From the NCBI GenBank assembly GCA_963665765.1, contig OY762464.1, forward strand, positions 2,601,958 to 2,665,957: 64,000 nt of DNA. Direction: 5' to 3'. Every line of letters begins with the position of its first letter. Within the stretch, counting starts at the first letter, position 1. The notes under the pieces were generated by a model. The model was not told where the DNA came from. It was given only the letters and a program-made list of their open reading frames with translations, and made no database searches. Shown one piece after another: positions 4,106 through 37,363 of the stretch. Origin of the DNA: Acidimicrobiia bacterium. GTDB lineage: Bacteria > Actinomycetota > Acidimicrobiia > Spongiisociales > ZC4RG35. Made by a program: the position numbers and the translations under genes.

Positions 4106-4116
4106 GGCCGGCTTAA

Positions 4117-5280
4117 GTGAGGCTGCTTCACACTTCCGACTGGCATGTCGGAAAAGCCATCCGAGGGATTTCCCGGGCGGATGAGCATCGGGCGGTACTG
4201 GCGGAGGTCGCCCTGATCGCCGAGCAGGAAGAGGTTGATCTGGTGATCGTCGCCGGTGATGTGTTCGACTCGTCGGCGCCCACCGCCGAAGCAGAAGAAA
4301 TTGTTTATCAGGCTCTCCTCAACCTCTCCGAGACCGGAGCCGAGGTGGCGATGATCGCCGGCAATCATGACAATCCCCGCCGGTTGCGGGCGATTACGCC
4401 CCTTTTGCGGCTCGGGCGGGTGCATGTGGTTGCCGAGCCAACCCGACCCGACGACGGGGGCGTCCTCCCATTGAGAGCTCGTAGCGACCGAAGCGAGATT
4501 CGTCTGGCGATGCTCCCCTTCGTATCCAAGCGCGGCATCGTGCGCGCCAAAGACCTCATTGGCAACCAAGCCTTCGAGCACGCCCAGCAGTACAGCGAGC
4601 GTATGCGCCTGCTGATTGCGGCGCTGTGCGATTCGTTCCGGGGTGACACCGTCAACCTGCTCACCGCCCACACTTTCGTGCTGGGTGGCGCGATGGGAGG
4701 CGGCGAACGACCGGCCCACCTGGTTGAAGAATATGCCGTTATGGCACAGTCCTTCCCGGTGGCGACCATGAGCTACGGGGCGCTCGGTCATCTCCACCGG
4801 CCCCAACGGGTCGGACCGGCGCTCTATTACTGCGGTTCTCCGCTGCAACTTGACTTCGGCGAAACCGATCAGACCAAACAAGTCAATATCGTCACCTTGG
4901 AACCGGGCCTACCAGCCGATGTCCAAGCCGCGCTGCTCACCTCGGGGCGGCCGCTTCGGACACTGAGCGGGACGCTCGACGAACTTGCCTCGATGAGCAC
5001 CCAAGACGATGCCTGGCTGAGGGTGGTCGTGAAAGGTCCGGGCCGGGCAGACCTGGCTCGGACTGTGCGCCAAGTACTCGGCCCCGGCGTGGTCGACGTA
5101 CGGGTGGAATCACCCCAAACGGCCGGCAGGCAACGGCGATTCGATCATCGCAGCCACTCGCCACAAGAGTTGTTCGGTGAGTATCTCACGCACCAGAATG
5201 TCAAAGACACCCGGGTCAGTGACCTGTTCGGTGAGCTGTTGGACGTCCACGGCGACGGGCCGGCGGGACGGCAGTCATGA
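4117..5280 (+). CDS. sbcD: DNA double-strand-break repair nuclease SbcD/Mre11 (calcineurin-like phosphoesterase)
   Basis: N-terminal LHTSDWHVGK and VIVAGDVFD, IAGNHD metallophosphatase motifs. Immediately upstream of, and overlapping (ATGA), the Rad50/SbcC gene. Confidence 0.85.
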   Translation: MRLLHTSDWHVGKAIRGISRADEHRAVLAEVALIAEQEEVDLVIVAGDVFDSSAPTAEAEEIVYQALLNLSETGAEVAMIAGNHDNPRRLRAITPLLRLGRVHVVAEPTRPDDGGVLPLRARSDRSEIRLAMLPFVSKRGIVRAKDLIGNQAFEHAQQYSERMRLLIAALCDSFRGDTVNLLTAHTFVLGGAMGGGERPAHLVEEYAVMAQSFPVATMSYGALGHLHRPQRVGPALYYCGSPLQLDFGETDQTKQVNIVTLEPGLPADVQAALLTSGRPLRTLSGTLDELASMSTQDDAWLRVVVKGPGRADLARTVRQVLGPGVVDVRVESPQTAGRQRRFDHRSHSPQELFGEYLTHQNVKDTRVSDLFGELLDVHGDGPAGRQS

Positions 5281-8144: not shown

Positions 8145-9091
8145 TGCATTTCAGCGTGGAGTCGTGGGCGCCTCAATACGGAGCTTCGATCACCTCACCG
8201 TCTGCCGAAGACGCCGACCATCAAGTTGATGTCACTGTCGAGCGGCCGCTCCACGATTGGGCCCCGATCGACACGGGGCCGGTCACCATTCCCGATGAGA
8301 TCGTCTTTATCGATGGGATCCAGCGCATCGATGCCCGAATCTGGATCCACCACGACGGCATCCCCATACCGGCCGTTTGCGCCTCCTTAGCGGCCGGGGC
8401 CGTGGTCTGTTGGCCGGACGGAGCGGTGACCGAAGGCGTGCGGATCGCCCGGGCGTTGATCGCGCCGGCCTCCTCGATCGCCACTCCGATTATCACGCGG
8501 CACGCTACCTACGAAATGACCCCCGCCCGGGATGCGACTCCCGAAGCTGCCTATCTGACGATTCACAGCATCCGTCAAGAGCTTGAGACCAGTGTCGCTC
8601 GTTCGATAAATCACGACCTCATCGTATTCGACGGTCCACTGCGGGGACATCACCCCCAGTTCGGGGTGGGCTATGTCAAGACCCACCACAAGATCTACCT
8701 GCCGCAGCAATTGCAGCCGCTGCTCGGCAGCCTCAACGAGGGACAACGAACCCCCATCTTTTTTCTCTCCAGTGGCCCGAGCGGCGCTCGCTGGTCCTGG
8801 TATCTGCGCCTGCCCGGCCCGGCAGTTCACCCTTTGGCCGGGATCGTGCGGCTCGAACTACCCGGTACGGGAAGCGCCGCGGTCGCCGCCCGACGCGCCG
8901 CCTTGGTAAGTTCCAGTCTGCCTCGCTATGCCAGTGAACCCCACAAGGAACCCCGAGCGCCGCAGAACCTATATCCCATTGCCGGCCTCGAGCAACAACT
9001 TAGCCGACGACTCGGGGATCCGTTGCTTTTGGAACGGGCCCTGCGAGTTGCGGCGACACCTCAAAGTCAAAGAACCCGGATCGGATTGTAA
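8141..9091 (+). CDS. Putative NurA-like 5'-3' nuclease (hypothetical; assignment by operon context and DG motifs)
   Basis: Start overlaps the sbcC stop (ATGA). Contains FIDGIQ and LIVFDGPL motifs resembling NurA DGS/DG(S/T)L motifs. Position after rad50 matches the archaeal herA-mre11-rad50-nurA order. Confidence 0.4.
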   Translation: MMHFSVESWAPQYGASITSPSAEDADHQVDVTVERPLHDWAPIDTGPVTIPDEIVFIDGIQRIDARIWIHHDGIPIPAVCASLAAGAVVCWPDGAVTEGVRIARALIAPASSIATPIITRHATYEMTPARDATPEAAYLTIHSIRQELETSVARSINHDLIVFDGPLRGHHPQFGVGYVKTHHKIYLPQQLQPLLGSLNEGQRTPIFFLSSGPSGARWSWYLRLPGPAVHPLAGIVRLELPGTGSAAVAARRAALVSSSLPRYASEPHKEPRAPQNLYPIAGLEQQLSRRLGDPLLLERALRVAATPQSQRTRIGL

Positions 9092-9111
9092 ATGGGTAAG
9101 ATCCAGAGAAG

Positions 9112-9726
9112 GTGATGGCCATGACTGACACCGTGAAGAATGGGAAGGCCGGATTGTATTCCGTCGGCCATTCGAGTCATCCGTTCGAACGCTTTTTAGA
9201 GCTCCTCAGCGAATATGAGATCGAGGTTGTAGCGGATGTGCGCACCTCTCCCTATTCGAGATACAGTCCCCAGTTCGACCAACGAGATCTCCGATACGGC
9301 TTGAGGGAAGTGGGTTTGCACTACATGTTTCTGGGGAAGACGCTGGGAGGCCGTCCTGAGGGGGATCGATTCTATGACTCAGAAGGGCACATTTCTTATG
9401 GTCGGGTAGCTAAAACCGATTGGTTCCGATTGGGACTGAATCGGCTCCGTGAAGGGGGCGCCAAGTTCCGGACAGCCATGCTATGCAGCGAAGAAGACCC
9501 AAAAGATTGTCATCGCTTTCTTCTCGTCACACGTGCTCTCCACACGGTTGGTGAGAAGGTTTCCCACATTCGCGGCGATGGCTCTCTCCAGAGCAGTAGA
9601 GACATCTCCGCATTTGATCCTGAGCACAGGGTGTTCTCTCTATTCGGGGAGGAGGTGAAGAGTTCATGGAGATCTACACGATCGGCTTTACCAAGAAGGC
9701 CGCTGAGGACTTCTTCGCGCTCTTGA
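9112..9726 (+). CDS. DUF488 family protein (paralog 1)
   Basis: YSVGHSSHPFERFLELL...VVADVRTSPYSRYSPQF...CSEEDPKDCHRFLL matches the DUF488 (YeaO-like) pattern. Local GC ~50%, much lower than the flanks. Confidence 0.55.
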   Translation: MMAMTDTVKNGKAGLYSVGHSSHPFERFLELLSEYEIEVVADVRTSPYSRYSPQFDQRDLRYGLREVGLHYMFLGKTLGGRPEGDRFYDSEGHISYGRVAKTDWFRLGLNRLREGGAKFRTAMLCSEEDPKDCHRFLLVTRALHTVGEKVSHIRGDGSLQSSRDISAFDPEHRVFSLFGEEVKSSWRSTRSALPRRPLRTSSRS

Positions 9727-10103
9727 AACAAAATGGCATCCGGCGGCTGGTGGACGTGCGGGTCAGCCCTTCCTCACATTTGGCCGGCTTCGCCAGGCGA
9801 CGTCACCTTGTCTATTTTCTCAGAGATTTGGTGGGCGCAGACTATGTTCATGAGCCGATATTGGCGCCCACCGAAGAACTTCTCAAGTCTTATCGCAACC
9901 GGGAAATAACTTGGGCCGAATACGAGGAAGCCTTCTTGGAACTCCTATCTCAACGCAGGGTCGACAATAAGATTTCGACTGACCTGTTCGCTCTAAGAAC
10001 AGTTCTCTTGTGCAGCGAACCAACCCCTGAGTTCTGCCATCGGCGGCTGGTGATAGATCATCTCGCCCGGCATTGGGGTGATGTGCAAGCTGTTCATTTG
10101 TGA
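9666..10103 (+). CDS. DUF488 family protein (paralog 2)
   Basis: MEIYTIGFTKK...LVDVRVSPSS...LLCSEPTPEFCHRRLV, same family as the upstream gene. Overlaps it by ~60 bp. Confidence 0.55.
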   Translation: MEIYTIGFTKKAAEDFFALLKQNGIRRLVDVRVSPSSHLAGFARRRHLVYFLRDLVGADYVHEPILAPTEELLKSYRNREITWAEYEEAFLELLSQRRVDNKISTDLFALRTVLLCSEPTPEFCHRRLVIDHLARHWGDVQAVHL

Positions 10104-24326: not shown

Positions 24327-25313
24327 ATGCTGCCCACGGATTCCCCTGCATGGCCCCCTTCCCTTACTGAGGCCACCGCCGCGCGGGACGGGGACCAGGA
24401 TGCCCTAGCATCCATTCTCGTCCAGGGACTGCCTCGGCTGGTGGCGTTCTATCGCGGCCAGGGTTTGAACCTGTCCGATGCCGAGGACGTGGCGAGCGAT
24501 GCCTGCGAATCGATCATCCGTTCCATCGGACGTCTGAGGTCTCCACAGGCTTTTGAAGCATGGTTTTGGAGGGTGGCCCGTTCCAAATTCCATGACTACC
24601 TGCGCAGGCGCCACCGGCCGCTGCCCGCCCCCGAGATTGAGACGACCCATTCGCTCCCCGATGAACACACCTTGGACCAAGAGGACTTTCAAACGGTCCG
24701 CGCCGCCTACGGAAGACTTGGCGCACAAGACCGGGAGTTGCTCTGGTTGCGGGAAGTGGAAGGTCTGTCCTATGCGGCGATCGGAAGTCGCCTGTTCAAG
24801 CGGGAGGGTTCGGTGAGAGTGGCGATGCTGCGCGCTCGCCGTCGATTGGAGAAACTGATCGAGGAGGAGAGAGAAAAGCCCTATGCGGAGCCGCGCTACC
24901 GAACCCCTTCCGTTCTGTTCACCGAAGCCCAGGATGCCTGCTGTTCGCAGATGGCTGCCGCGTTGTTGCGAACCATGGCGACGGGATCGGTGAGGGTGTT
25001 CAATGGGGGGTTGGCTCCCGCCGCGGCGGTGGACCCCGGGACCGTGCAGGTACTGGCTGAACGGGGCATAGACATCGGTGGGGCGCGTCCGGTCCGGTTG
25101 AACAAAGGCATGGTGGAGGCAGCCGAGGTGGTGGTGTATTTCGGCGGGGAGCAATTGCCGATCACGGCCGATAAGCGTTACCTGAGGTGGCAGATCCCCT
25201 CGCCTGAGGGAGAGGGGCTGGAGGGAATGAGAAGAGCGTTTGATGAAATAGAACGGCGAGTTTGGGAATTAATGGTCCTTTTGGAGATAAAACCTCGCCG
25301 GATAAACCCTTGA
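24327..25313 (+). CDS. ECF (group 4) sigma factor fused to a C-terminal degenerate ArsC/LMW-PTP-like domain
   Basis: Sigma70 region 2 (LSDAEDVASDACESIIRSIGRL...FEAWFWRVARSKFHDY) and region 4 (LWLREVEGLSYAAIGSRLFKREGSVRVAMLRARRRL). The C-terminal ~130 aa align to Bacillus ArsC / LMW-PTP (FTEAQDACCSQMAAALL vs FLCTGNSCRSQMAEGW; ERGIDIGGARPVRL vs EVGIDISNQTSDII). The catalytic Cys and Arg are replaced. Confidence 0.75.
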   Translation: MLPTDSPAWPPSLTEATAARDGDQDALASILVQGLPRLVAFYRGQGLNLSDAEDVASDACESIIRSIGRLRSPQAFEAWFWRVARSKFHDYLRRRHRPLPAPEIETTHSLPDEHTLDQEDFQTVRAAYGRLGAQDRELLWLREVEGLSYAAIGSRLFKREGSVRVAMLRARRRLEKLIEEEREKPYAEPRYRTPSVLFTEAQDACCSQMAAALLRTMATGSVRVFNGGLAPAAAVDPGTVQVLAERGIDIGGARPVRLNKGMVEAAEVVVYFGGEQLPITADKRYLRWQIPSPEGEGLEGMRRAFDEIERRVWELMVLLEIKPRRINP

Positions 25314-25388: not shown

Positions 25389-26402
25389 TTGAGCGACCAC
25401 TCCGAGGCGGGGCTAAGGATGGTTGCAAGAAAACGCGCCGGAGCCAGAAAGGATCTAGGAGTGCGACTCACCAATGAAATAACGGATGAGCGGGGCCGAC
25501 TTACCTCCGATCTGGTAGCTCAGTACCTATCCGCCATCAGCCAGACCGATCTGCTCGATGCTCAGCAGGAGGTGGAGTTGGCACAGTTGATGGAGCGAGG
25601 TCGCCAGGCGAAGGGCATGTTGGAAGAAGGCGAGTTTGAGACCTTGGCGGACAAAAGGATTTTGGACAGGCGGAGGCGTCGGGGGGCGGACGCCAAGAAT
25701 CAGTTTGTCCAAGCCAATCTGCGCTTGGTGGTGCACAACGCTCGGCGCTATCAGGGAGTCCGGGGTATCGATTTTCTGGATCTGGTTCAGGAAGGAAACC
25801 TGGGTCTGATCCGGGCCGTGGAAAAATTCGACTGGCGCAAGGGTTTCAAGTTCTCCACCTACGCCACTTGGTGGATCAAACAGGCCATAACCCGCGCCAT
25901 TGCCGACAAGTCTCGCACCGTGCGTATCCCGGCTCATCTTCACGACACCTTGGCCAAGGTTCGATTGGCCCAAGGGATTCTCAAAGGAAAGCTGGGTCGC
26001 ATGCCCGAGCCCGACGAGATCTCGCAGGAGACGGGTATCCGCATCGATCATGTGGAACAGGCGCTGGTGCTGTCCGACACGGTCTCTTTGGAGGAGCCGG
26101 TGGGAGAGGACGGAGCGCAGCGGGGAGACTTCATTGAGGACGGCGACGCCGAGAATCCCGAAGCCATCGCCGAGGCGACCAGTGTGGCCATCGCCATGCG
26201 CAATTCCATCAGAAAACTACCGGATCGTGAGCGCAAGATCATGGAATTGCGGTATGGATTGGATGACGGGATTCCCAAGGGTCTGGATGAGATCGGCAGC
26301 CACTTCCAGTTGACCCGGGAAAGGATTCGCCAGTTGGAGAAACTAGCCTTGTGCAGGCTGAGACACCCCTCCTACGGGATCCGGCAACAGGACTTGATAT
26401 AG
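25389..26402 (+). CDS. RNA polymerase sigma-70 family factor (RpoD/group-2-like)
   Basis: Regions 1.2-4 present: DLVAQYLSAI, NLRLVVHNARRYQ, IDFLDLVQEGNLGLIRAVEKFD, STYATWWIKQAITRAIAD, LTRERIRQLEKLAL. No long region 1.1. Confidence 0.85.
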   Translation: MSDHSEAGLRMVARKRAGARKDLGVRLTNEITDERGRLTSDLVAQYLSAISQTDLLDAQQEVELAQLMERGRQAKGMLEEGEFETLADKRILDRRRRRGADAKNQFVQANLRLVVHNARRYQGVRGIDFLDLVQEGNLGLIRAVEKFDWRKGFKFSTYATWWIKQAITRAIADKSRTVRIPAHLHDTLAKVRLAQGILKGKLGRMPEPDEISQETGIRIDHVEQALVLSDTVSLEEPVGEDGAQRGDFIEDGDAENPEAIAEATSVAIAMRNSIRKLPDRERKIMELRYGLDDGIPKGLDEIGSHFQLTRERIRQLEKLALCRLRHPSYGIRQQDLI

Positions 26403-26464: not shown

Positions 26465-27832
26465 GTGAGACACCGTCGGACCGTGCAAGGCTTTCCGTTC
26501 AGGCTGGCGCTGGCCGGTCTTGCGCTGGTCGGGACGGCTCTTTTTATGGTCCTTCCGGCTTTGGGTCAGTCGTCGGAGACGGTGGGTACCCGGTTGCGAT
26601 ACCAGAACGAGGAGGGAAACCGGGTGCCGGTGGGGGGGGCGAGTCTGTCCGTGTCCACCCTGGATGGGATCGAAATCGGATCGGGGGTCACCGACGCCGA
26701 CGGAGCGTTTTCCACGCCGGTTCCCGGGCCCGCCGTGTATGCGGTGACCATCGATATCGGTACCCTCCCGCCGGGAATCCGGTTGCGTGAGCCGGACCGG
26801 ATCACGGTGGAGGTGGAGGTGCTGGAAGGCCGGGATGGGCGAGCCATTTTCTCCTTGACCAGCGGGGCGGTGGAGATGGTCGAAGAGAGTGGGGGGATAT
26901 CTCTTCGGCGGGTGGCGCAACTCACCACCGAGGGAATCAAACTGGGATTGTTCCTCGGCATGGCCGCCATCGGGCTTTCGTTGGTATTCGGAACCACCGG
27001 CCTGGTCAACTTCGCCCACGGCGAGATGGTTACCTGGGGAATGCTCTCGGCCTATTTCTTCAATTACTTCGGCTTGGCCGGAGCGTTCGGTTTCATGGCC
27101 GGCTGGTGGCCGCCGTTGGGGGACGGGGTCAATCTGATTCTGGCGGCGGTGTTGGCGGTGTTGATCGGGGGGTTGACCGGGTATTTGATGGACCGGTGGA
27201 TTTTTCGACCCCTACGTACCCGGGGCGTGAGCCTCATCGCCCAGATGGTGGTGACCATCGGGCTTTCGATCCTGGCCCGCTATGTTTTCCTTTTCATATT
27301 CGGAGGGAATCTGAGGTTCTTCAGGGACTACTCCGCCCAAAGCGCCCTGCAGATCTGGATAATCGAGATCACTCCCAAGGACCTGATCACCGTGGTGCTC
27401 TCGGTTCTGATCCTGCTGGGTGTGGGGTTGTTCCTGCAGCGGACCCAAACCGGCAAGGCCATGCGGGCGGTGGCGGACAATCGTGATCTGGCTGAATCTT
27501 CGGGCATCAATGTCCAAGGGGTGATCCGCACCGTCTGGATCGGGGCCGGCGCCCTGGCCGGGCTGGGTGGGGTGTTCATCGGGTTGGCCGAGCAACTGAG
27601 TTGGCTGATCGGGTTCCGGATGCTGCTTTTGATCTTCGCCGGGGTGGTGCTGGGCGGGCTCGGCACGGCCTACGGAGCTTTGCTGGGATGTCTTCTGGTG
27701 GGGATCGGCATTCAACTCTCCACTCTGTTCATCCCGGTGGAACTGAAAAACATCGGTGCCCTGGTGGTGCTGGCTTTGGTGCTGGTAGTGCGTCCCCAGG
27801 GCATTTTGGGCAGGAGGGAGCGGTTCGGGTAG
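26465..27832 (+). CDS. livH: Branched-chain amino acid ABC transporter permease LivH with a ~150-aa N-terminal signal/periplasmic extension
   Basis: C-terminal 300 aa carries LivH motifs (FGTTGLVNFAHGEM...). The N-terminus has a signal/TM segment plus a beta-rich ~130-aa domain not normally present. Confidence 0.8.
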   Translation: MRHRRTVQGFPFRLALAGLALVGTALFMVLPALGQSSETVGTRLRYQNEEGNRVPVGGASLSVSTLDGIEIGSGVTDADGAFSTPVPGPAVYAVTIDIGTLPPGIRLREPDRITVEVEVLEGRDGRAIFSLTSGAVEMVEESGGISLRRVAQLTTEGIKLGLFLGMAAIGLSLVFGTTGLVNFAHGEMVTWGMLSAYFFNYFGLAGAFGFMAGWWPPLGDGVNLILAAVLAVLIGGLTGYLMDRWIFRPLRTRGVSLIAQMVVTIGLSILARYVFLFIFGGNLRFFRDYSAQSALQIWIIEITPKDLITVVLSVLILLGVGLFLQRTQTGKAMRAVADNRDLAESSGINVQGVIRTVWIGAGALAGLGGVFIGLAEQLSWLIGFRMLLLIFAGVVLGGLGTAYGALLGCLLVGIGIQLSTLFIPVELKNIGALVVLALVLVVRPQGILGRRERFG

Positions 27833-27834
27833 CT

Positions 27835-28845
27835 ATGACGGTGGCAGCGATCGACTGGGGTTTCATCCTGATCCAGACGGTGGAGACGTCGTTGGGTCTG
27901 GAGGCGGCGGTGTATGCCTTGGCGGCGGTGGGTTTGAATATCCACTTCGGTTACGCGGGGTTGCTGAACTTCGGACAGGTGGGTTTTGTGGCCGCCGGGG
28001 CCTATGGGATGGGATTGTCCGTGACCTTGTGGAACCTCAACCCGTTCTTGGCGGTGCTGGTGGGCATGGGTTTTGCCACCGCCTTCGCCCTCATCCTGGG
28101 ACTCCCCACTCTCCGTCTGAGAGGCGACTACCTGGCGATCGTCACCATCGCGGCCGCCGAGATTATTCGTCTGCTGGCTCGCTCCACCACTCTGGGCGAC
28201 ATCACCCGAGGCGCGGAGGGTCTCCATGCCTTCATCGGACCCTTCCGGGAGTTGAATCCCTTCGATCCCGGCGTCGAGTACGGGGTCGGACCTTTTCAGG
28301 TGGGCGGCAACCAGTTTTTCGCCATCGTGCTGGGATGGGGAGTGACGGCGGTGGCCCTGGTGGTTATCTGGCAGTTGATGAGAAGTCCCTGGGGCAGAGT
28401 GGTGAAGGCCATCCGGGAAGACGAGGACGCGGCTCGAGCGCTGGGTAAGAACGCCTATTGGTACAAGCTGCAGGCTTTGATCCTGGGTGGAGTGATCGGG
28501 GGATTGGCCGGCATGGTGCAGGCGGTGGGGAAAGCCACCATCCAGCCCGATTCGTTCGTTCCCGCCTACACGTTCTTCTTTTGGACAGTGCTGATCCTGG
28601 GTGGAGTGGGGCGCATCTGGTCGCCGGTGGTGGGCGCCATGGTCTTTTGGGCCATGCTTACCTTCTTCCAGGGAACCCTGGCGGCTTTGGTCAATGAGGG
28701 ATGGATCCCCACCGCTTTGATGGACCCGACTCAGGTCAACCAGATCCGGTTCATGCTGGTGGGGGTGGGATTGGCGTTGCTGATGGTCTTTCGACCACAG
28801 GGAATCTTTGGGTCACGAGAGGAGATGATGCTGGATGTCCGGTAA
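27835..28845 (+). CDS. livM: Branched-chain amino acid ABC transporter permease LivM
   Basis: LNFGQVGFVAAGAYG...LRLRGDYLAIVTIAAAEII motifs. ATG 27835 chosen over the overlapping upstream start at 27601. Confidence 0.85.
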   Translation: MTVAAIDWGFILIQTVETSLGLEAAVYALAAVGLNIHFGYAGLLNFGQVGFVAAGAYGMGLSVTLWNLNPFLAVLVGMGFATAFALILGLPTLRLRGDYLAIVTIAAAEIIRLLARSTTLGDITRGAEGLHAFIGPFRELNPFDPGVEYGVGPFQVGGNQFFAIVLGWGVTAVALVVIWQLMRSPWGRVVKAIREDEDAARALGKNAYWYKLQALILGGVIGGLAGMVQAVGKATIQPDSFVPAYTFFFWTVLILGGVGRIWSPVVGAMVFWAMLTFFQGTLAALVNEGWIPTALMDPTQVNQIRFMLVGVGLALLMVFRPQGIFGSREEMMLDVR

Positions 28846-29692
28846 CCACCGCTCCGATGGGGGGCATCCTCTCGCCGATGTGGAGCAGGTCCCCGGCGTG
28901 GCCAAGCCCGACCCGATCCTGGTGGTCGAAAACATGCGCCGGGCCTTTGGGGGTTTGGTGGCGGTCGACGTGGACCATTTGGAGATCCAGCGGGGGATCA
29001 TCACCGCCTTGATCGGACCCAACGGCGCCGGTAAGACCACCTTCTTCAACCTGCTGACCGGGTTCGACAGTCCCGACGCGGGATCGGTGATGTTCGATGG
29101 AAAGGACGTTCAGCGCCTGAATTCGCACCGACGGGCGCAGGCGGGGATGGTGCGGACTTTCCAGCTCACCAAAGCGTTGACCAAACTGTCCGTGTTGGAG
29201 AACATGAAGCTGGGCGCCAAGGGCCAGGTCGGCGAACGCTTCCTGCCGTCGCTGTTGCCACCCCTTTGGAGGTCCCAGGAGAAGGTTATCGAGGAGCGGG
29301 CCCACCAACTGTTGGAGCGGTTCAGCCTCCATCACATGGCGGAGGAGTATTCGGGGACTCTGTCAGGAGGCCAGCGCAAGCTGTTGGAGATGGCCAGAGC
29401 CCTGATGGCCGCCCCGGCGGTGGTTATGTTGGACGAGCCGGTGGCCGGTGTCAATCCTGCTCTGACCCAGTCGCTGCTGGAGCATGTCAAGCGGCTCCCC
29501 GATGAAGGCGTTACGGTGATTTTCGTGGAGCATGATATGGATGTGGTGTGGGATATCTCCGACTGGGTGGTGGTCATAGCCGAAGGGGCGGTGATTGCCG
29601 AAGGTGTTCCCGAATCGATCGGGAAAAATCGGGCGGTGATCGATGCCTATCTGGGATCGGGCCAGGATGTCCTCGAATCCGAGGAGGTATAG
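28835..29692 (+). CDS. livG: Branched-chain amino acid ABC transporter ATP-binding protein LivG
   Basis: GPNGAGKTTFFNLLTG Walker A, LSGGQRKLLEMARAL signature, VMLDEPVAG Walker B. Confidence 0.85.
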   Translation: MSGNHRSDGGHPLADVEQVPGVAKPDPILVVENMRRAFGGLVAVDVDHLEIQRGIITALIGPNGAGKTTFFNLLTGFDSPDAGSVMFDGKDVQRLNSHRRAQAGMVRTFQLTKALTKLSVLENMKLGAKGQVGERFLPSLLPPLWRSQEKVIEERAHQLLERFSLHHMAEEYSGTLSGGQRKLLEMARALMAAPAVVMLDEPVAGVNPALTQSLLEHVKRLPDEGVTVIFVEHDMDVVWDISDWVVVIAEGAVIAEGVPESIGKNRAVIDAYLGSGQDVLESEEV

Positions 29693-29696
29693 GCCG

Positions 29697-30443
29697 GTGA
29701 GCGGAGATAACAGTTCGGGACGCCCGCTGGTGGAGTTGCGCCACCTGGTGGCGGGCTACCTGCCGGGGGTGGACATTCTCAAGCAAGTTGACCTGACCCT
29801 CTACCCGGGGGAGATGATCGGAATCATCGGTCCCAATGGCGCCGGCAAATCAACCTTGCTGAAGGCGCTGTTCGGACTCTTGGATGTCCGTTCGGGAGAG
29901 GTGATCTACAAGGGAGAATCCATCAAGGGGCTGCGGGCTTACGAGTTGGTTGCCAAAGGGGTGGGATACGTGCCCCAGCTCAACAACGTGTTCGCGGCGC
30001 TCACGGTGATGGAGAACCTGGAGATGGGGGTGTACCTGCAGCCGGACAAAACCGCCGAGCGTCTGGAGAGGGTGGTGGAGTTCTTTCCCAGGTTGGGGGA
30101 GCGTCTCGGGCAGCGAGCGGGGCTTCTTTCGGGAGGGGAGCGGCAGATGTTGGCGATGGGCCGGGCTCTGATGATGAATCCGCAGGTGTTGTTGCTGGAC
30201 GAGCCCTCGGCGGGGCTCTCTCCGGTTCTGCAAGATCAGGTATTTGCCCGGACCGGAGACATCAACCGCTCCGGGGTGGCGGTGATCATGGTGGAGCAGA
30301 ACGCCCGGCGGTGCCTGCAGATCTGCCACCGGGGCTATGTGCTGGACCACGGGCGCAACGCCTACACCGGCACCGGGCAGAGTCTGCTGAGTGATCCGAA
30401 AGTGATCGAACTCTACTTGGGGACCTTGGCCCGGGGCGGCTAA
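29697..30443 (+). CDS. livF: Branched-chain amino acid ABC transporter ATP-binding protein LivF
   Basis: GPNGAGKSTLLKALFG, LSGGERQMLAMGRAL, LLLDEPSAGL. GTG 29697 is preceded by a GAGGAGG RBS. Confidence 0.85.
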   Translation: MSGDNSSGRPLVELRHLVAGYLPGVDILKQVDLTLYPGEMIGIIGPNGAGKSTLLKALFGLLDVRSGEVIYKGESIKGLRAYELVAKGVGYVPQLNNVFAALTVMENLEMGVYLQPDKTAERLERVVEFFPRLGERLGQRAGLLSGGERQMLAMGRALMMNPQVLLLDEPSAGLSPVLQDQVFARTGDINRSGVAVIMVEQNARRCLQICHRGYVLDHGRNAYTGTGQSLLSDPKVIELYLGTLARGG

Positions 30444-30502: not shown

Positions 30503-30718
30503 CTATTGAGATAGCCACTCTTCCCGTGAGATGTCGGCTCGGTTGAGAAGATCTCTGAGAATGTCCACACGCACCTCTCCGGGGTTTGGGATGCGAAGGG
30601 TTCTCTGACCCTTTCTCATAAAAGGATGATGCGTTCCCGTTTCGGGTCCGGACCAACCGTTTTTCCGCAGGCGCTTGATCAGGTCTCTTTGGCTGATCGG
30701 GGTCAGCCGCAAGCTCAT
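30503..30718 (-). CDS. hicA: Type II toxin HicA (mRNA interferase)
   Basis: 71 aa. LIKRLRKNGWSGPETGTHHPFMRKGQ...RIPNPGE matches the HicA dsRBD-like family (GSHH...F..P pattern). 4-bp overlap with the upstream gene. Confidence 0.75.
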   Translation of the reverse strand: MSLRLTPISQRDLIKRLRKNGWSGPETGTHHPFMRKGQRTLRIPNPGEVRVDILRDLLNRADISREEWLSQ

Positions 30719-31083
30719 GCCATCGCGTACGCGAGATTTATGTGTTCCATTTTGGGGATGTCATTATCACGGTTGGATAGCTTCAAGTCCAGCCATTCAG
30801 TTAACACCGATTCCAGTTCCACCAGAGCATCATTGCGTGTTTCTCCAAACCCCCATGCTCCGTCTACTCCGGCAATGGAAGCGATGAACCCAACGGGGTC
30901 TTGGATAGGACGACAGATCGCATGGAACATGGCGATCCTTATCCACCTTTTAGCCAACTCTTCGGATGAAGGGCTTGAGACATTGTCGTTAGTTAAGACA
31001 TGCTCTGGTACCTCGGGGCGAAGCACTCGAGTCTTTTCTGTGTTCCCTGGCCAAACATGCGGGCTGTAGGTTAGCAAGGTCAT
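30715..31083 (-). CDS. hicB: HicB-family antitoxin-like protein
   Basis: C-terminal DPVGFIASIAGVDGAWGFGETRNDALVELESVLTEWLDL matches the HicB/UPF0150 core (..PGC.TQGDT.EEAL.N..EA..L.LE). No obvious RHH/HTH domain. Confidence 0.55.
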   Translation of the reverse strand: MTLLTYSPHVWPGNTEKTRVLRPEVPEHVLTNDNVSSPSSEELAKRWIRIAMFHAICRPIQDPVGFIASIAGVDGAWGFGETRNDALVELESVLTEWLDLKLSNRDNDIPKMEHINLAYAMA

Positions 31084-31328
31084 ATATCCTCCTCCGGCAC
31101 TGAAATGGACATCACGTTGGTTGATTCGAACATGTAGACCGGGCGACCTAGAGGGTCCTGCTGACCTTCCATGCGAAATATGTTGGTTAATGCCAGTTTC
31201 ACACGCAACAGAGTTCCATCATCAAGAAGATAACTCATCCAAGGCTCCTCGCCTTCAGCGCGGAACCCGAGTTCAACGGCATCAATCATCTCGCCGTTGG
31301 GAGATCTAATCTTCCGTTTCCTTTCCAT
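31080..31328 (-). CDS. Small hypothetical protein (82 aa), translationally coupled upstream of hicB-hicA
   Basis: ATG at 31328 is preceded by a strong AAAGGAG RBS (31346-31340). The stop overlaps the hicB start by 4 bp. No recognisable family. GC ~50%. Confidence 0.45.
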   Translation of the reverse strand: MERKRKIRSPNGEMIDAVELGFRAEGEEPWMSYLLDDGTLLRVKLALTNIFRMEGQQDPLGRPVYMFESTNVMSISVPEEDI

Positions 31329-31427
31329 GGTGGTAAACACTCCTTTGACCCGCTTAACTGTTCGAACCAGGTGGGGACCGGGTAAAACCGGCCCCCACCT
31401 GGTCATTTTGGTTAGTTTCGTTTGACT

Positions 31428-33944
31428 CTATCCACCCGCAAAGACGTACTCGTCGAGGGATGAGTCGGGTCGGTCGCCGCCGTTGTAGGTGGCGATGCGG
31501 AAGCTGGCTGCGGCGGGTTCGCCGGCGTCTACGAATTCGTAGGGTCCGCCTACTCCGTCGTAGTCGGGGTCGCCGCCGTTTTCGATGATGTCTTTGCAGT
31601 CGGCGAAGCTGGTGCACTTGGTGCCGCCGCGGGTGACGTCGTTGATCTCGGTTCCGATGTCCACCGGGTTGTCGCTGTTGGCGGCCAACGCGGCCAGGGC
31701 CACGATCACGATGGCGTCGTAGGTCTCGGCGCCGTAGGCGTACACCTCGGACAGGCCGCCTTCGTAGGCGCCGTCCAGTCGGGCGGTGAAGTCGGAGATG
31801 GAACTGAGATCCACCGAGGGTTCGGTGCCGCGCATGCCTGTGATGATGGAGGGATCGGAAAGCTCGGCGCCGATACCGCCGATGTTTCCGTCAACTCCGT
31901 ACACGTTGGTGGCGGACGTTGCGCCGATGTTCCGTTCGTGCATGGTCACCAATATGGTGGCCGATTCTTGGAACCCGATCACCACTACCGCGTCGGGGGA
32001 GGCGTCTGCCAACTGGTCGACCTCGGCGTCGAAGTTGTCGGTGCCGGGGGCGTAGGCGATGAACGGATCCACCGTGCCGCCCTGGCTCTCGAAGTTTTCC
32101 TTGAACGAGTCGGCCAGACCCTGCCCGTAGGACTCCTGTCGGTAGATCACCCCGGCGATCTCGTTGCCTTCCGACGCCACCAGGTCGGCCAGGACCTTGC
32201 CCTGCAACAAGTCGGAGGGGGCGGTGCGGAAATACAGGCCGTTGTCGTCGTAGGTGGTGAAGTCGGGGGAAGTGTTGGCCGGGGAGAAGTGGATCACGTT
32301 GTTGCCGGTGATCTTGTCGATCACCAGCTTGGAAACAGCCGAGCTGGCGGCTCCGATGATGGCGTCCACGTCCAAGGCCAGCAGCCGGTCGACCTCGGGG
32401 TTGGCGATGTCCTGGTTGGTGTCGCCGGAGTCTCCCTCATGCAACACCACATCGTTGCCCAACACACCTCCCGCCGAATTGATATCGGCAATCGCCAACC
32501 GGGCGCCCGCCACCTCCGGCGGACCCAAGAAAGCCAAATCACCGGTAACCGGCAACAACGTACCAATCACCAACTGACCGGTGGCCATTTCCGTCATGGC
32601 TGCGCCGTCGTCACCGGACCCGCCGGCGAAGACATATTCATCCAACTCCGGGTCGGGTCGGTCGCCGCCGTTGTAGGTGGCGATGCGGAAGCTGGCTGCG
32701 GCGGGTTCGCCGGCGTCTACGAATTCGTAGGGTCCGCCTACTCCGTCGTAGTCGGGGTCGCCGCCGTTTTCGATGATGTCTTTGCAGTCGGCGAAGCTGG
32801 TGCACTTGGTGCCGCCGCGGGTGACGTCGTTGATCTCGGTTCCGATGTCCACCGGGTTGTCGCTGTTGGCGGCCAACGCGGCCAGGGCCACGATCACGAT
32901 GGCGTCGTAGGTCTCGGCGCCGTAGGCGTACACCTCGGACAGGCCGCCTTCGTAGGCGCCGTCCAGTCGGGCGGTGAAGTCGGAGATGGAACTGAGATCC
33001 ACCGAGGGTTCGGTGCCGCGCATGCCTGTGATGATGGAGGGATCGGAAAGCTCGGCGCCGATACCGCCGATGTTTCCGTCAACTCCGTACACGTTGGTGG
33101 CGGACGTTGCGCCGATGTTCCGTTCGTGCATGGTCACCAATATGGTGGCCGATTCTTGGAACCCGATCACCACTACCGCGTCGGGGGAGGCGTCTGCCAA
33201 CTGGTCGACCTCGGCGTCGAAGTTGTCGGTGCCGGGGGCGTAGGCGATGAACGGATCCACCGTGCCGCCCTGGCTCTCGAAGTTTTCCTTGAACGAGTCG
33301 GCCAGACCCTGCCCGTAGGACTCCTGTCGGTAGATCACCCCGGCGATCTCGTTGCCTTCCGACGCCACCAGGTCGGCCAGGACCTTGCCCTGCAACAAGT
33401 CGGAGGGGGCGGTGCGGAAATACAGGCCGTTGTCGTCGTAGGTGGTGAAGTCGGGGGAAGTGTTGGCCGGGGAGAAGTGGATCACGTTGTTGCCGGTGAT
33501 CTTGTCGATCACCAGCTTGGAAACAGCCGAGCTGGCGGCTCCGATGATGGCGTCCACGTCCAAGGCCAGCAGCCGGTCGACCTCGGGGTTGGCGATGTCC
33601 TGGTTGGTGTCGCCGGAGTCTCCCTCATGCAACACCACATCGTTGCCCAACACACCTCCCGCCGAATTGATATCGGCAATCGCCAACCGGGCGCCCGCCA
33701 CCTCCGGCGGACCCAAGAAAGCCAAATCACCGGTAACCGGCAACAACGTACCAATCACCAACTGACCGTCTGTCATACCCATGTCATCGGGGGTGTCATC
33801 GGGGGCCGCGGTGGTGGCGGGAGTCTGGGTGGTGGGAGTCGCTTCCGTCACTTCGGTCGCTTCGTCGTCTCCGCAGGCGGTCGCCACCAACGCCATGATT
33901 GCCATGATGGCCACCAGCCTGAGATAACTCTTGGTTCTATTCAT
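31428..33944 (-). CDS. Lipoprotein ABC substrate-binding protein, Leu/Ile/Val-binding (LivJ/K-like, PBP type I), internally duplicated into two nearly identical SBP domains
   Basis: Lipobox LVATAC after MNRTKSYLRLVAIMAIMA. The body is LivJ-like (GTLLPVTGDLAFLGPPEVAGARLAIADINSAGGVLG...). The whole ~372-aa domain occurs twice, with DNA identity 100% over 1117 bp. RBS AAGGAAGG before ATG 33944. Confidence 0.85.
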   Translation of the reverse strand: MNRTKSYLRLVAIMAIMALVATACGDDEATEVTEATPTTQTPATTAAPDDTPDDMGMTDGQLVIGTLLPVTGDLAFLGPPEVAGARLAIADINSAGGVLGNDVVLHEGDSGDTNQDIANPEVDRLLALDVDAIIGAASSAVSKLVIDKITGNNVIHFSPANTSPDFTTYDDNGLYFRTAPSDLLQGKVLADLVASEGNEIAGVIYRQESYGQGLADSFKENFESQGGTVDPFIAYAPGTDNFDAEVDQLADASPDAVVVIGFQESATILVTMHERNIGATSATNVYGVDGNIGGIGAELSDPSIITGMRGTEPSVDLSSISDFTARLDGAYEGGLSEVYAYGAETYDAIVIVALAALAANSDNPVDIGTEINDVTRGGTKCTSFADCKDIIENGGDPDYDGVGGPYEFVDAGEPAAASFRIATYNGGDRPDPELDEYVFAGGSGDDGAAMTEMATGQLVIGTLLPVTGDLAFLGPPEVAGARLAIADINSAGGVLGNDVVLHEGDSGDTNQDIANPEVDRLLALDVDAIIGAASSAVSKLVIDKITGNNVIHFSPANTSPDFTTYDDNGLYFRTAPSDLLQGKVLADLVASEGNEIAGVIYRQESYGQGLADSFKENFESQGGTVDPFIAYAPGTDNFDAEVDQLADASPDAVVVIGFQESATILVTMHERNIGATSATNVYGVDGNIGGIGAELSDPSIITGMRGTEPSVDLSSISDFTARLDGAYEGGLSEVYAYGAETYDAIVIVALAALAANSDNPVDIGTEINDVTRGGTKCTSFADCKDIIENGGDPDYDGVGGPYEFVDAGEPAAASFRIATYNGGDRPDSSLDEYVFAGG
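31464..32580. repeat. Copy A of a 1117-bp perfect direct repeat (period 1188 bp) inside the SBP gene
   Basis: Identical to 32652-33768. Duplicated six-frame ORFs at a fixed +1188 offset (31706/32894, 31786/32974, 32254/33442, 32321/33509) confirm it. Confidence 0.9.
32652..33768. repeat. Copy B of the 1117-bp perfect direct repeat
   Basis: See copy A. The 71-bp junction (32581-32651) and the outer flanks are homologous but diverged. Confidence 0.9.
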
Positions 33945-34085: not shown

Positions 34086-35819
34086 CTATCTGATCAGGGC
34101 CACCACCGCGCCGGCCGCCACCGAGTCTCCTGCTTCGATGCGCAGCTCCACCACGTTGCCCTCCTTGCCGGCCGTCACCGCGTTCTCCATCTTCATGGCC
34201 TCCAGCACGCAGACGGTGTCCCGGGCGCCCACCCGGTCGCCCACCTTCACGTTCACCTTCACGATGGTGCCCTGCATGGGAGCGGTGACCGCTCCGTCAG
34301 TGGCCACGGCGGGCTCTTTGACGGGTTTGGACGGGCGTCGGCGTACCTTGGGTCGGGTGTCCTGGCCGATATCGGGCTCCCAGTAGGAGACCACGAACCG
34401 TCTGCCCCCGATCTCAACGGTCATGTCCTGGCGAACGACGCTTTCCTCTTCGGGCAGTGAGGCGGCCACCTCCGGGTCGGCGGGAGACAGGAGGAACTCG
34501 TTCTCCAGCCAACCGGTGTGATGGCGGGCGGAGATGAAAGCCGGATGATCGAGCACCGCACGGTGCACCGGGATCGTGGTGGGGATTCCGGTGATCTCAT
34601 ACTCGTGCAGCGCCCGCTTCGCCCGGTTGATAGCCTGCGTGCGGGTGGGTCCCCACACCACCAGCTTGGCCAGCAGATTGTCGTAGAAGCGAGGGATGGT
34701 GACGCCCGCGCTCACCCAACCGTCCACCCGCACCCCCGGTCCGGACGGTTCCCGGTAGGTGACTATCCGGCCCGGGGTGGGCAGGTAGTCTCGGTGGGGA
34801 TCCTCGGCATTGATGCGCATCTCGATGGCGTGCCCGTCCGCTCGCAGGCCAATGGCCGAGGTGGGACGTCCGGCGGCGATTCGCAACTGTTCTCGGACCA
34901 GGTCCACCCCGGTCACCATCTCGGTGACCGTGTGTTCGACCTGAAGCCGCGTGTTCATCTCCAGAAAATAGAAGGATCCCGACGGGTCGGCCAAAAATTC
35001 CACTGTTCCGGCGTTGCGATAATCGCAGGTGCGGGCGATCCTCAGGGCGGCGTCTCCCAGTTCCCGGCTCTGGGTGAGGTTCATGATCACCGAGGGGGCC
35101 TCTTCGATGAGCTTTTGGTGCCGCCGCTGCACCGAGCAGTCCCGTTCTCCCAGGTACACGTAGTTGTGGTGGTCGTCCACCAGGATCTGCGCTTCGATGT
35201 GATGGACGCCGGTCAGTTTTTTCTCCAGATAGACCTGCGGACTGCTGAAGTAGGCGTCCGCCTCCCGTTGGGCGGAGGCCAGGGCTTCTTCGATCTCCGA
35301 AGGGTGACTCACCGTTCTCATGCCGCGTCCTCCGCCGGCATGGGACGCCTTGATCAACACCGGATAGCCGAGTTGGCCGGCCGCCTCCCTTATCTCTTGG
35401 GAGTCTTGCAGGGGGGATTCGGTTCCCGGCACCACCGGCACTCCGGCCTCGATCGCTATCCGGCGGGAAGCCACCTTGTCTCCCATGGCGGCGATGGCGG
35501 CCGGGGGGGGTCCCACCCAGATCAGTCCCTGGTCGATGACCGCTTGGGCGAAGTCGGCGTTCTCCGACAAAAAACCGTAGCCGGGATGGATAGCCTCGGC
35601 GCCGGTCTCCCGGGCGACCTTGAGAATCCGCTCCGCATTGAGGTAGGACTGCCCGGCGGGAGCAGGTCCGATGTTCCAGGATTGGTCCGCCAACTGGGTG
35701 TGATAGGCGTCCCGGTCCGGTTCGGAATACACCGCGATGGTCCGCAGGCCCATTTCCCGGGCGGTGCGGATGATCCTGACCGCGATCTCGCCGCGGTTGG
35801 CGACCAGCACCGATTTCAC
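34086..35819 (-). CDS. accA: Acetyl/propionyl-CoA carboxylase alpha subunit (biotin carboxylase + BCCP domains)
   Basis: MKSVLVANRGEIAVRIIRTAREMG N-terminus, ATP-grasp core, C-terminal biotinyl motif CVLEAMKMEN. Confidence 0.9.
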   Translation of the reverse strand: MKSVLVANRGEIAVRIIRTAREMGLRTIAVYSEPDRDAYHTQLADQSWNIGPAPAGQSYLNAERILKVARETGAEAIHPGYGFLSENADFAQAVIDQGLIWVGPPPAAIAAMGDKVASRRIAIEAGVPVVPGTESPLQDSQEIREAAGQLGYPVLIKASHAGGGRGMRTVSHPSEIEEALASAQREADAYFSSPQVYLEKKLTGVHHIEAQILVDDHHNYVYLGERDCSVQRRHQKLIEEAPSVIMNLTQSRELGDAALRIARTCDYRNAGTVEFLADPSGSFYFLEMNTRLQVEHTVTEMVTGVDLVREQLRIAAGRPTSAIGLRADGHAIEMRINAEDPHRDYLPTPGRIVTYREPSGPGVRVDGWVSAGVTIPRFYDNLLAKLVVWGPTRTQAINRAKRALHEYEITGIPTTIPVHRAVLDHPAFISARHHTGWLENEFLLSPADPEVAASLPEEESVVRQDMTVEIGGRRFVVSYWEPDIGQDTRPKVRRRPSKPVKEPAVATDGAVTAPMQGTIVKVNVKVGDRVGARDTVCVLEAMKMENAVTAGKEGNVVELRIEAGDSVAAGAVVALIR

Positions 35820-37363
35820 AATGGAATGTTTCCGTGTTTTTTGCTCGGCAGGGCTTCTCGTTTGGTGCGGAGCATCTCCAAAGCGGCGATGAGTCGGGGC
35901 CGGGTTTGGCGGGGCTCGATCACCGAATCCACCAGGCCGAGTTCGGCGGCCTTGTAGGGATTGTTGAACTCGGACTCGTATTCCCCTATCAGGTCGAGTC
36001 GCCGCCGGTTCGGGTCCTCGGCGGCGGCGATTTCCCGGCGGAAGATCACGTTCACCGCTCCCGAGGCGCCCATCACCGCGATCTCCGCCGATGGCCAGGC
36101 GAAGACCACATCGGCTCGGATCCCGCGGGCGTTCATCACCAGATAGGCCCCACCGTAGGCCTTGCGGGTGATCACCGAAACTCGGGGAACCGTGGCTTCG
36201 CAGTAGGCGTAGAGCAACTTGGCGCCGTGACGGATGATTCCCTGGTGCTCCTGATCGACTCCGGGCAACACCCCGGGGACATCCACGAAAGTCACCAGCG
36301 GGATGTTGAAGGCGTCACAGAACCTAACGAACCGCGCCCCCTTCTGGGCGGCGTCGATGTCCAGAGTTCCGGCCAGAACCGCCGGCTGGTTGGCTACCAC
36401 TCCCACCGTGTGGCCGTCCAGACGTCCCAATCCCACCAGCAGGTTGCGCGCCCAGTACTGATGCACCTGGAAGAATTCGCCGTCATCGAGGACCGTTTCG
36501 ATCAGGGTGGTCATGTCGTAGGGTTGGTTCGATGAGTCGGGAATGATCTGGTCCAACAGGTCGTCGGTGCGGGTGGGAGAGTCGACGGGAGTGAAGTAGG
36601 CAGGCAGTTCGAGGTTGTTCTGGGGGAGAAAAGAGAGGAGATACCGGACCCCGTCGAGGGCGAGCGCATCTTCGCTGAAGACGAAATGCACCACCCCCGA
36701 GGTGGAAGCGTGCACCATCGCCCCTCCCAACTCCTCGAAGGTGACCTCCTCGCCGGTCACCGCTCTGATCACGTCGGGGCCGGTGATGAAGAGGTGGCTG
36801 GTCTCGCTCACCTGGATCACGAAGTCGGTGAGAGCCGGAGAGTAGACCGCGCCGCCGGCGCAGGGTCCCATGATCACCGAGATCTGCGGTATGACCCCCG
36901 AGGCGCGGACGTTCCGCTCGAAAATCCTTCCGTAACCGTCGAGCGACGCCACCCCTTCCTGGATGCGGGCGCCGCCCGAGTCCTTGAGCCCGATCAGGGG
37001 AGCGCCGGACTGCATCGCCATATCGGTTATCTTGCAGATCTTGTCGGCCACCGCCACGCCCAGGCTGCCCCCGAAGGTGGTGAAGTCTTCGGCGAACACG
37101 AACACGGTCCGCCCATCAATCTTTCCCCATCCGGTCACCACCGCGTCCCCCAGCGGCCTTCGGTTCTCCACCCCGAACCCGCGCCCGGAATGACGGACGA
37201 AGGCGTCGACCTCACAGAAGGTGTCCTGATCCAGCAGGTGGGCGATCCGCTCGCGAGCGGTCAGCTTGCCCCGTTCATGCTGGCGGTCGATAGAGCGGCG
37301 GTCGACGGTCACCGCCTGGTGCCGCATCCGGCGCAGTTTTTCTATTCGTTGTTCAGTGCCCAA
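35816..37363 (-). CDS. pccB: Acyl-CoA carboxylase carboxyltransferase beta subunit (propionyl-CoA carboxylase beta-like)
   Basis: 515 aa with crotonase-fold carboxyltransferase N- and C-domains (RIEKLRRMRHQA..., GGARIQEG..., VITRKAYGGAYLVM). Overlaps accA by 4 bp. Confidence 0.9.
   Translation of the reverse strand: MGTEQRIEKLRRMRHQAVTVDRRSIDRQHERGKLTARERIAHLLDQDTFCEVDAFVRHSGRGFGVENRRPLGDAVVTGWGKIDGRTVFVFAEDFTTFGGSLGVAVADKICKITDMAMQSGAPLIGLKDSGGARIQEGVASLDGYGRIFERNVRASGVIPQISVIMGPCAGGAVYSPALTDFVIQVSETSHLFITGPDVIRAVTGEEVTFEELGGAMVHASTSGVVHFVFSEDALALDGVRYLLSFLPQNNLELPAYFTPVDSPTRTDDLLDQIIPDSSNQPYDMTTLIETVLDDGEFFQVHQYWARNLLVGLGRLDGHTVGVVANQPAVLAGTLDIDAAQKGARFVRFCDAFNIPLVTFVDVPGVLPGVDQEHQGIIRHGAKLLYAYCEATVPRVSVITRKAYGGAYLVMNARGIRADVVFAWPSAEIAVMGASGAVNVIFRREIAAAEDPNRRRLDLIGEYESEFNNPYKAAELGLVDSVIEPRQTRPRLIAALEMLRTKREALPSKKHGNIPL

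Follow-up and report, generated by a model that had tools for sequence, protein, structure and literature searches.

The 64,000-nucleotide (nt) stretch analysed here (hereafter the window; contig OY762464.1 of an Acidimicrobiia bacterium, positions 2,601,958 to 2,665,957) encodes on its minus strand an 838-residue LivJ-type substrate-binding lipoprotein in which a whole binding domain occurs twice, the two copies being identical over 1117 nt. Our results point, with a probability that we put at about 0.8, to an old in-frame duplication whose halves have been homogenised by ongoing intragenic gene conversion and whose product would act as two equivalent receptors on one chain. The domain copies resemble each other within a genome far more closely than they resemble their counterparts in other genomes, even though the junction between them and the short tails behind them are shared between species by position.

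Base-by-base comparison of the window at an offset of 1188 nt showed that positions 31464-32580 and 32652-33768 form an uninterrupted run of 1117 identical nt, as the first-pass annotation of this sequence had reported. The period equals 396 codons, so the repeat is in frame, and both copies lie within a single open reading frame (ORF). The gene runs on the minus strand, so that 32652-33768 encodes the N-terminal domain, which corrects that annotation. The two domains agree at 372 of 372 residues, and a repeat of this kind is not producible by chance in 64 kb. Within some tens of bases beyond either end of the core, identity has dropped to that of random sequence. The outer flanks had also been described as homologous but diverged, and this is true of the C-terminal flank only, where the last 11 codons (32619-32651 against 31431-31463) differ at 14 of 33 nt, mainly at third codon positions; at the opposite end, the tether that precedes copy 1 and the linker that precedes copy 2 are no more alike than random sequences and show no detectable relation. 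Tandem Repeats Finder, with a longest period of 500, did not report the repeat, and a repeat-family search with a 300-nt reference copy under-reported it as a 300-nt family at 96%. The parts of the gene on which the comparison depends are as follows.

31428-33944, minus strand: two-domain LivJ-type substrate-binding lipoprotein gene, 838 amino acids (aa), from ORF translation, Pfam and the N-termini of homologues
32652-33768, minus strand: repeat copy forming binding domain 1 (N-terminal), GQLVIG...GGDRPD, 100% identical to 31464-32580
32581-32651, minus strand: junction, made of the diverged domain 1 tail PELDEYVFAGG (32619-32651) and the acidic linker SGDDGAAMTEMAT
31464-32580, minus strand: repeat copy forming binding domain 2 (C-terminal), from the identical run
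31428-31463, minus strand: diverged domain 2 tail SSLDEYVFAGG and stop codon
31428-31430, minus strand: stop codon TAG of the double gene

Copies of the domain in ten genomes

A 1143-nt unit (LVIG...AGG) was compared in ten genomes, namely the window and those designated L001-L003, L081 and L092-L096. Copy 1 and copy 2 differ at 0 nt in L092, 1 in L094, 2 in L001, 3 in L095, 7 in L003, 8 in L002, 13 in L093, 14 in the window, 35 in L096 and 74 in L081. Identity of the unit within a genome is thus 93.5-100%, whereas copy 1 compared between genomes shows 78-96% identity, with a median of 86%. Perfect repeats of their own were found in L001 (1140 nt), L002 (1116 nt) and L003 (949 nt), with periods of 1182, 1185 and 1188 nt. 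Selection on the protein was excluded as the cause of this identity because synonymous sites are identical too.

In the domain tree the halves pair by genome, whereas the junction and tails group by position. The junction of the window aligns with those of L001, L002, L003 and L081, and over a 42-nt tail segment tail 2 of the window is 93% identical to tail 2 of L002 but only 67% identical to tail 1 of the window itself. The boundary of identity at unit position 1110 is common to the window, L002 and L093, and the last 11 codons are orthologous by position in three genomes. Further evidence comes from the related pair L081 and L096: of the 74 sites at which the copies of L081 differ, 27 differ in the same phase in L096 and none in the opposite phase, while the remaining sites have been homogenised to the copy-1 state (17) or the copy-2 state (30) in alternating runs. 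This pattern is the expected footprint of short bidirectional conversion tracts acting on long-lived copies. At one site, strains of one species group carry T/T, T/F or F/F, and substitutions specific to a strain occur in both halves.

We propose that homogenisation would proceed mainly by non-reciprocal gene conversion, with tracts ranging from tens of nt to the whole unit, and that unequal sister-chromatid exchange may contribute. Under such a process new mutations in one copy would either vanish or spread to both halves, and in the window the latest conversion would have covered everything except the final 11 codons, so that tail 2 escaped. Concerted evolution in bacteria has been described for duplicated genes and repeats in Mycobacterium tuberculosis, where gene conversion is involved (PMC12046097), and in-frame repeat recombination is known from Helicobacter cagY (PMC2194252). 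The gene studied here resembles such cases in its higher similarity within genomes than between them, in its mosaic tracts and in the preservation of the reading frame by recombination. It differs in that an entire ligand-binding domain of 381 codons, inside a single transporter gene, forms the unit, which has been kept at exactly two copies across species, and in having no evident context of antigenic variation.

One patch of the unit (nt ~942-1004) escapes this uniformity, reading TRGG-T-K-C in copy 1 and TRGG-F-K/Q-C in copy 2. It adjoins a conserved Cys-x5-Cys segment, persists in L003, L081 and L096 and in the proteins P0009, P0013, P0014 and P0016, and is the only patch with copy-specific differences kept in several genomes. 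The F state of copy 2 is derived, as the single-domain orthologues read T/A-K. The patch may be a weakly selected difference or a conversion cold spot; the F-K/Q against T-K contrast was rejected as a general sign of subfunctionalisation, being confined to the L003 and L081/L096 lineages.

Base composition was also inspected. GC content at third codon positions (GC3) of the binding domain gave no consistent signal of GC-biased conversion, with 0.85 in the window, 0.71-0.72 in L001 and L003 and 0.83-0.86 in single-domain genes, and only L002 was odd. The double gene of L002 (6195-8502) has a binding-domain GC3 of 0.575 against 0.75-0.84 in its flanking genes and 0.71-0.86 in the other double and single genes. 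L002 is the sister species of the window and has the highest protein identity to it (90%), yet the lowest nucleotide identity (80%).

Homologues and history of the double gene

A homologue search covering 5.8 billion proteins returned numerous single-domain relatives, with up to ~80% identity, and three groups of two-domain homologues. Group 1 holds ~20 proteins of 828-851 aa that are 86-90% identical to the window protein and lie on contigs of up to 3.1 Mb, group 2 consists of Ilumatobacter proteins with ~50% identity, and group 3 has 36% identity. When the double proteins were split, their halves proved 96-100% identical in groups 1 and 2 and 70% identical in group 3. At least nine other Acidimicrobiia genomes carry a two-domain gene with the same architecture, junction and synteny, several of them on complete chromosomes or on contigs with long-read-style names. 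An exact-sequence look-up of the window protein gave no record, and a scan of metagenome contigs yielded only single-domain relatives with at most 72% identity. To call a double binding protein unusual, as the first-pass annotation did, is fair but overstated, considering that there are ~27 such database proteins in three clades and one protein with five domains.

The latter, P0125, was found by a HMMER search of 1.84 billion representatives. It measures 1943 aa and carries a membrane anchor at the N-terminus and, in tandem, five near-identical LivJ-type domains, of which the third is more diverged; identity to the window domain is 34-38% by blastp and 41% in the HMMER table. It suggests that the same homogenisation process operates in this longer array. 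In a more distant member of the Acidimicrobiia, locus L049 (3947-9771), which belongs to group 3, contains two single-domain genes (3947-5251 and 5977-7221) and a double gene (7315-9771) beside genes for ATP-binding cassette (ABC) ATPases, and the family therefore seems prone to local amplification. The halves of the L049 double are taken to be ~70% identical by analogy with the near-identical P0090 and P0092.

The search of relatives for single- and double-domain orthologues that the first-pass annotation had suggested found both forms at the same locus. A scan of GTDB species representatives recovered three further double species (L001-L003), two of which are chromosome-level or Mb-scale metagenome-assembled genomes (MAGs), and four single-domain species (L004-L007). 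All seven share the gene order of the window, with orf304, orf293, carboxyltransferase, biotin carboxylase and binding protein followed by livF-G-M-H in convergent orientation and then a sigma factor gene.

A neighbour-joining (NJ) tree of six flanking proteins (2512 columns) from the window and L001-L007 groups L001 with L003, the window with L002, and L004-L007 in a single-domain clade that joins the window and L002 with 92% bootstrap. The whole mature domain (~381 codons) of a LivJ-type gene already convergent to livHMGF would have been duplicated in tandem and in frame in an ancestor of this Acidimicrobiia species group, one duplication being the simplest history because the junction is shared. 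One collapse to a single copy would have followed, or none if the root lies on the single-domain branch. Recombination between repeats can delete one copy, and this probably explains the single-domain gene in L004-L007.

The other double genes seem to have histories of their own. Those of Ilumatobacter also face livFGMH and carry perfect repeats of 1183 and 1141 nt, but their unit has a different boundary and takes in part of the N-terminal linker. In group 3, the halves cluster by position and not by genome. The three groups are separated by many single-domain proteins in the domain tree; judged from this placement, double genes are therefore likely to have arisen independently at least twice, and probably three times.

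The protein, its partners and the case for two receptors

The double protein matches the Pfam families Peripla_BP_6 (232 bits against a cut-off of 31.7, 2e-68) and ANF_receptor (174 bits), each in two stretches. By sequence, the nearest solved relatives of the domain are Leu/Ile/Val-binding proteins, with matches in the Protein Data Bank (PDB) to 4n0q (9e-22), 4gnr (8e-18), 3ipc (2e-15), LivK 1usg (6e-13) and LivJ 1z15 (7e-12); segments of 4n0q align with the window motifs around SPANTSP, YFRT and SYGQG. A full-length AlphaFold (AF2) model built from 21 sequences reached a predicted local distance difference test score (pLDDT) of 65.4 and a predicted template modelling score (pTM) of 0.42, and in it the alternating strand/helix pattern appears twice, at only moderate confidence. 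Low-confidence stretches are the tether (residues 1-58, pLDDT <50) and the end of domain 1 through the linker (404-455). In agreement with the first-pass annotation, the product is a lipoprotein that has two complete type I LivJ-like binding domains and is not fused to a permease.

Although the mechanical ORF extends to GTG 34040, the start is likely ATG 33944, giving 838 aa, since close homologues all begin at the equivalent of that codon (M-x-x-T-K-R-Y-L-K-L...). Its N-terminal parts outside the repeat are the following.

33873-33944, minus strand: signal peptide MNRTKSYLRLVAIMAIMALVATAC, ending in the lipobox-like LVATA-C (Cys24), read from the translation
33769-33872, minus strand: Thr/Pro/Asp-rich tether of ~35 aa between lipid anchor and domain 1, from the translation

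The lipobox call follows a PROSITE-type rule. The N-terminus reads MNRTKSYLRLVAIMAIMALVATA-C. Alignments of 10 and of 21 double proteins show Cys24 without exception, Gly25 is likewise invariant among the aligned double homologues, and Cys24 is the predicted site of lipidation. The acidic interdomain linker SGDDGAAMTEMAT is 13 aa long.

No sigma-70-like promoter was found by a promoter scan. The terminator-like matches within the repeat, at 33729-33762 and 32541-32574, amount to weak GT-rich hairpins in coding sequence, and there are two of them because the sequence itself is duplicated. Codon usage at the start of each repeat (~60 nt) is G/T-rich; a repeat-specific DNA element was considered as the reason and dropped, since single-domain orthologues share this feature. 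About 25 nt past the stop codon of the double gene, at 31366-31403, lies a GC-rich inverted repeat (ACCAGGTGGGGGCCGG...CCGGTCCCCACCTGGT), which overlaps the annotated start of a 108-aa ORF and has no T-run after it on the minus strand; it is possibly a transcription terminator or attenuator.

The genes around the double gene supply its presumed translocator and a conserved context.

26465-30443, plus strand: convergent importer genes, the presumed translocator for the double protein (Pfam)
~26465-27832 and ~27601-28845, plus strand: two BPD_transp_2 permeases, starts uncertain (Pfam)
28835-29692, plus strand: LivG-like ATPase (Pfam)
29643-30443, plus strand: LivF-like ATPase (Pfam)
34086-35819, minus strand: biotin carboxylase/biotin carboxyl carrier protein (BCCP) subunit, conserved upstream neighbour (Pfam, NCBIfam, synteny)
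35816-37363, minus strand: mmdA/PccB-like carboxyltransferase, conserved upstream neighbour (Pfam, NCBIfam, synteny)

The importer arrangement recurs in every orthologous locus, beside the Ilumatobacter doubles and at the locus of a circularly permuted relative described below, and from this we infer that the double protein works as the binding protein of a HAAT-family ABC importer with LivHMGF. The carboxylase genes (34086-37363) give context only. Two further features of the neighbourhood were recorded. A HicB-like (UPF0150) gene (30715-31083, minus strand) lies between the binding-protein gene and livF, beside the 108-aa ORF (31080-31406, minus strand), which has no family match; among the syntenic loci both are present only in the window and L002, and the pair looks like a toxin-antitoxin-type insertion. 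On the plus strand, the ORF at 24327-25313 encodes sigma-70 regions 2 and 4 joined to a low-molecular-weight phosphotyrosine phosphatase domain at the C-terminus, and a second sigma factor gene (25389-26402) adjoins it, a pairing conserved in the syntenic loci.

The closest characterised counterparts are E. coli LivJ and LivK and other cluster-B (type I) Leu/Ile/Val-binding proteins of HAAT-family ABC importers, which belong to the same Pfam families and give the best solved-structure sequence matches. LivJ/LivK-type HAAT importers likewise have two BPD_transp_2 permeases and LivG/LivF-type ATPases, as adjoin the gene here. Unlike them, with one domain per polypeptide, the window protein carries two identical domains on a lipid anchor, as well as an additional Cys-x5-Cys segment near its C-terminus.

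Tandem binding domains themselves are known from GlnPQ, whose domains belong to the small type II amino-acid-binding class. In GlnPQ of Lactococcus lactis the two domains are joined covalently to the transmembrane domain, act largely independently and have different specificities and affinities (PMC8025302). Both systems place two binding domains in one polypeptide with a short linker, presumably competing for one translocator. However, the window protein ends after domain 2 and its permeases are encoded by separate convergent genes, in agreement with the first-pass description of a free double binding protein, and its domains are of type I (LivJ class) and identical, so that specificity would not be broadened. 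The window system is therefore not of the GlnPQ type, being unfused, of a different fold class and made of identical domains. A search of the open-access literature yielded no account of double binding proteins of the LivJ type, nor of naturally permuted ones.

By analogy with GlnPQ, each lipid-anchored chain would present two equivalent receptors, each domain independently binding the same amino-acid-like ligand and docking on the LivHM permease, with both competing for one docking site. The second receptor would raise the local receptor number and the capture rate; as the domains are identical, the gain would lie there and not in substrate range.

That the two-domain state has no adaptive value, and is a neutral or slightly deleterious duplication that persists by chance, seems to us rather unlikely. 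Such persistence would fit the four sister species that have one domain at the same locus. On the other hand, perfect 1.1-kb direct repeats are substrates for RecA-dependent deletion, and despite this the double form is retained in at least ten genomes whose cores have diverged by up to ~20%. Both halves remain intact ORFs, and double genes with different junctions arose in two other lineages.

Homogenisation mainly by copy-number cycling, in which unequal sister-chromatid exchange takes the gene from two copies to three and back to two, rather than by gene conversion proper, appears improbable. Tandem in-frame repeats allow it, crossovers within the core would leave tail 1 internal and tail 2 terminal, as seen, and the single-domain orthologues and the five-domain relative show that copies can be lost and arrays can expand. 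Nevertheless, no three-domain relative is found among the top matches of the window's clade, and the many short, alternating and bidirectional tracts of L096 fit conversion better than whole-unit exchange.

The first-pass annotation had offered recent duplication, gene conversion or an assembly artefact as explanations of the identity, and orthologous junctions and mosaic tracts support the second and speak against the other two, both of which we consider very improbable. A duplication in the window lineage so recent that there was too little time for divergence would account for 0 differences over 1117 nt, but not for tails that differ at 14 of 33 nt and are each closer to the positional L002 equivalent than to their own partner, for a junction common to genomes whose cores differ by 11-20%, for copy-specific differences in phase between L081 and L096, or for a double state scattered over the species tree of the flanking genes. 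An artefact, whether a single-copy gene expanded or diverged halves falsely homogenised by assembler or polisher, would be in keeping with a perfect 1.1-kb identity, as expected from an assembly-graph loop traversed twice, with the lack of a public record for the exact protein and with relatives on short-read scaffolds, but unique sequence and a diverged tail set the junction apart, independent assemblies, among them chromosome-level MAGs and contigs of long-read style, show the same architecture, junction and boundary, and the halves of L096 and L081, 3-6.5% diverged, show that assemblers resolve differences where they exist. Both explanations were thus rejected because of the shared junction, the positional tails, the in-phase differences and the divergence between genomes.

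Some points nonetheless count against an old duplication homogenised by gene conversion and serving as two receptors. Of the ten assemblies, three (L093-L095) consist of short-read scaffolds, where differences between copies could be collapsed, and copy number in the window rests on orthologues and not on the window's own reads. Sequence alone separates gene conversion from cycles of unequal crossing-over incompletely, and whether the second domain was lost or never gained in the single-domain species hinges on where a short NJ tree is rooted. With regard to function, the benefit of two domains is a hypothesis, the four sister species manage with one, and the full-length model (pLDDT 65, pTM 0.42) is too poor to judge interdomain contacts. 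The domain reached no curated NCBIfam cut-off and received no ligand-specific assignment, its best match being a high-affinity branched-chain amino acid (BCAA) binding protein with 73 bits against a cut-off of 477, and for this reason the ligand of each domain is predicted as a class only, as amino-acid-like.

Circular permutation and significance

Tandem duplication bears on a second group of Acidimicrobiia proteins. About 24 of the 150 best representative clusters (P0143, P0146, P0361 and others) are circularly permuted, with canonical residues ~222-382 placed first, followed by a linker of 25-35 aa and then residues 1 to ~220/240. Their N-terminus is that of a genuine lipoprotein, their C-terminal end is a common one, and they form a large family in Acidimicrobiia that includes Iamia and Actinospongicola halichondriae (P0361, on a 4.08-Mb record). 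Like the double gene, the gene for P0361 (locus L097, 7001-8344) is convergent to livF-G-M-H. Its AF2 model has a pLDDT of 84 and a pTM of 0.82, and matches of P0361 in the PDB cover only ~230-255 columns (TMq 0.39-0.47), with no solved structure having the permuted residue order. In Acidimicrobiia, the binding-protein gene convergent to livFGMH occurs in a canonical single form, a tandem double form and a permuted form that is widespread.

The permutation-by-duplication model requires a tandem-duplicate intermediate (PMC3320104). The window gene has the architecture of that intermediate, and the permuted family occurs in the same class at equivalent loci. If conversion keeps both halves functional, truncation at both ends could yield a working permuted protein. 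Descent of the permuted family from a double gene is, however, presumed here, and the permuted proteins are closest (55-62%) to the subfamily that contains the Ilumatobacter doubles, not to the window's clade. Such descent is plausible from these relationships; that the tandem doubles are living intermediates of natural circular permutation, with the permuted family derived from an Ilumatobacter-type double, is a tentative proposal that we hold to be less probable than its opposite.

Nearly all understanding of multi-domain binding proteins comes from GlnPQ, in which the domains differ and are fused to the permease. Here, matched one- and two-domain alleles exist at the same locus in sister species, which makes the value of a second identical receptor directly testable. 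Counts of the architecture are probably too low, because double genes break or collapse when assembled from short reads. The gene also provides a clear bacterial example of concerted evolution within a gene, affecting an entire 1.1-kb domain, and the series from 0 differences to mosaic copies (35 and 74) lets tract lengths and direction be read. Finally, the coexistence of the double architecture and a large permuted family in one class, at equivalent loci, offers a rare view of permutation by duplication.

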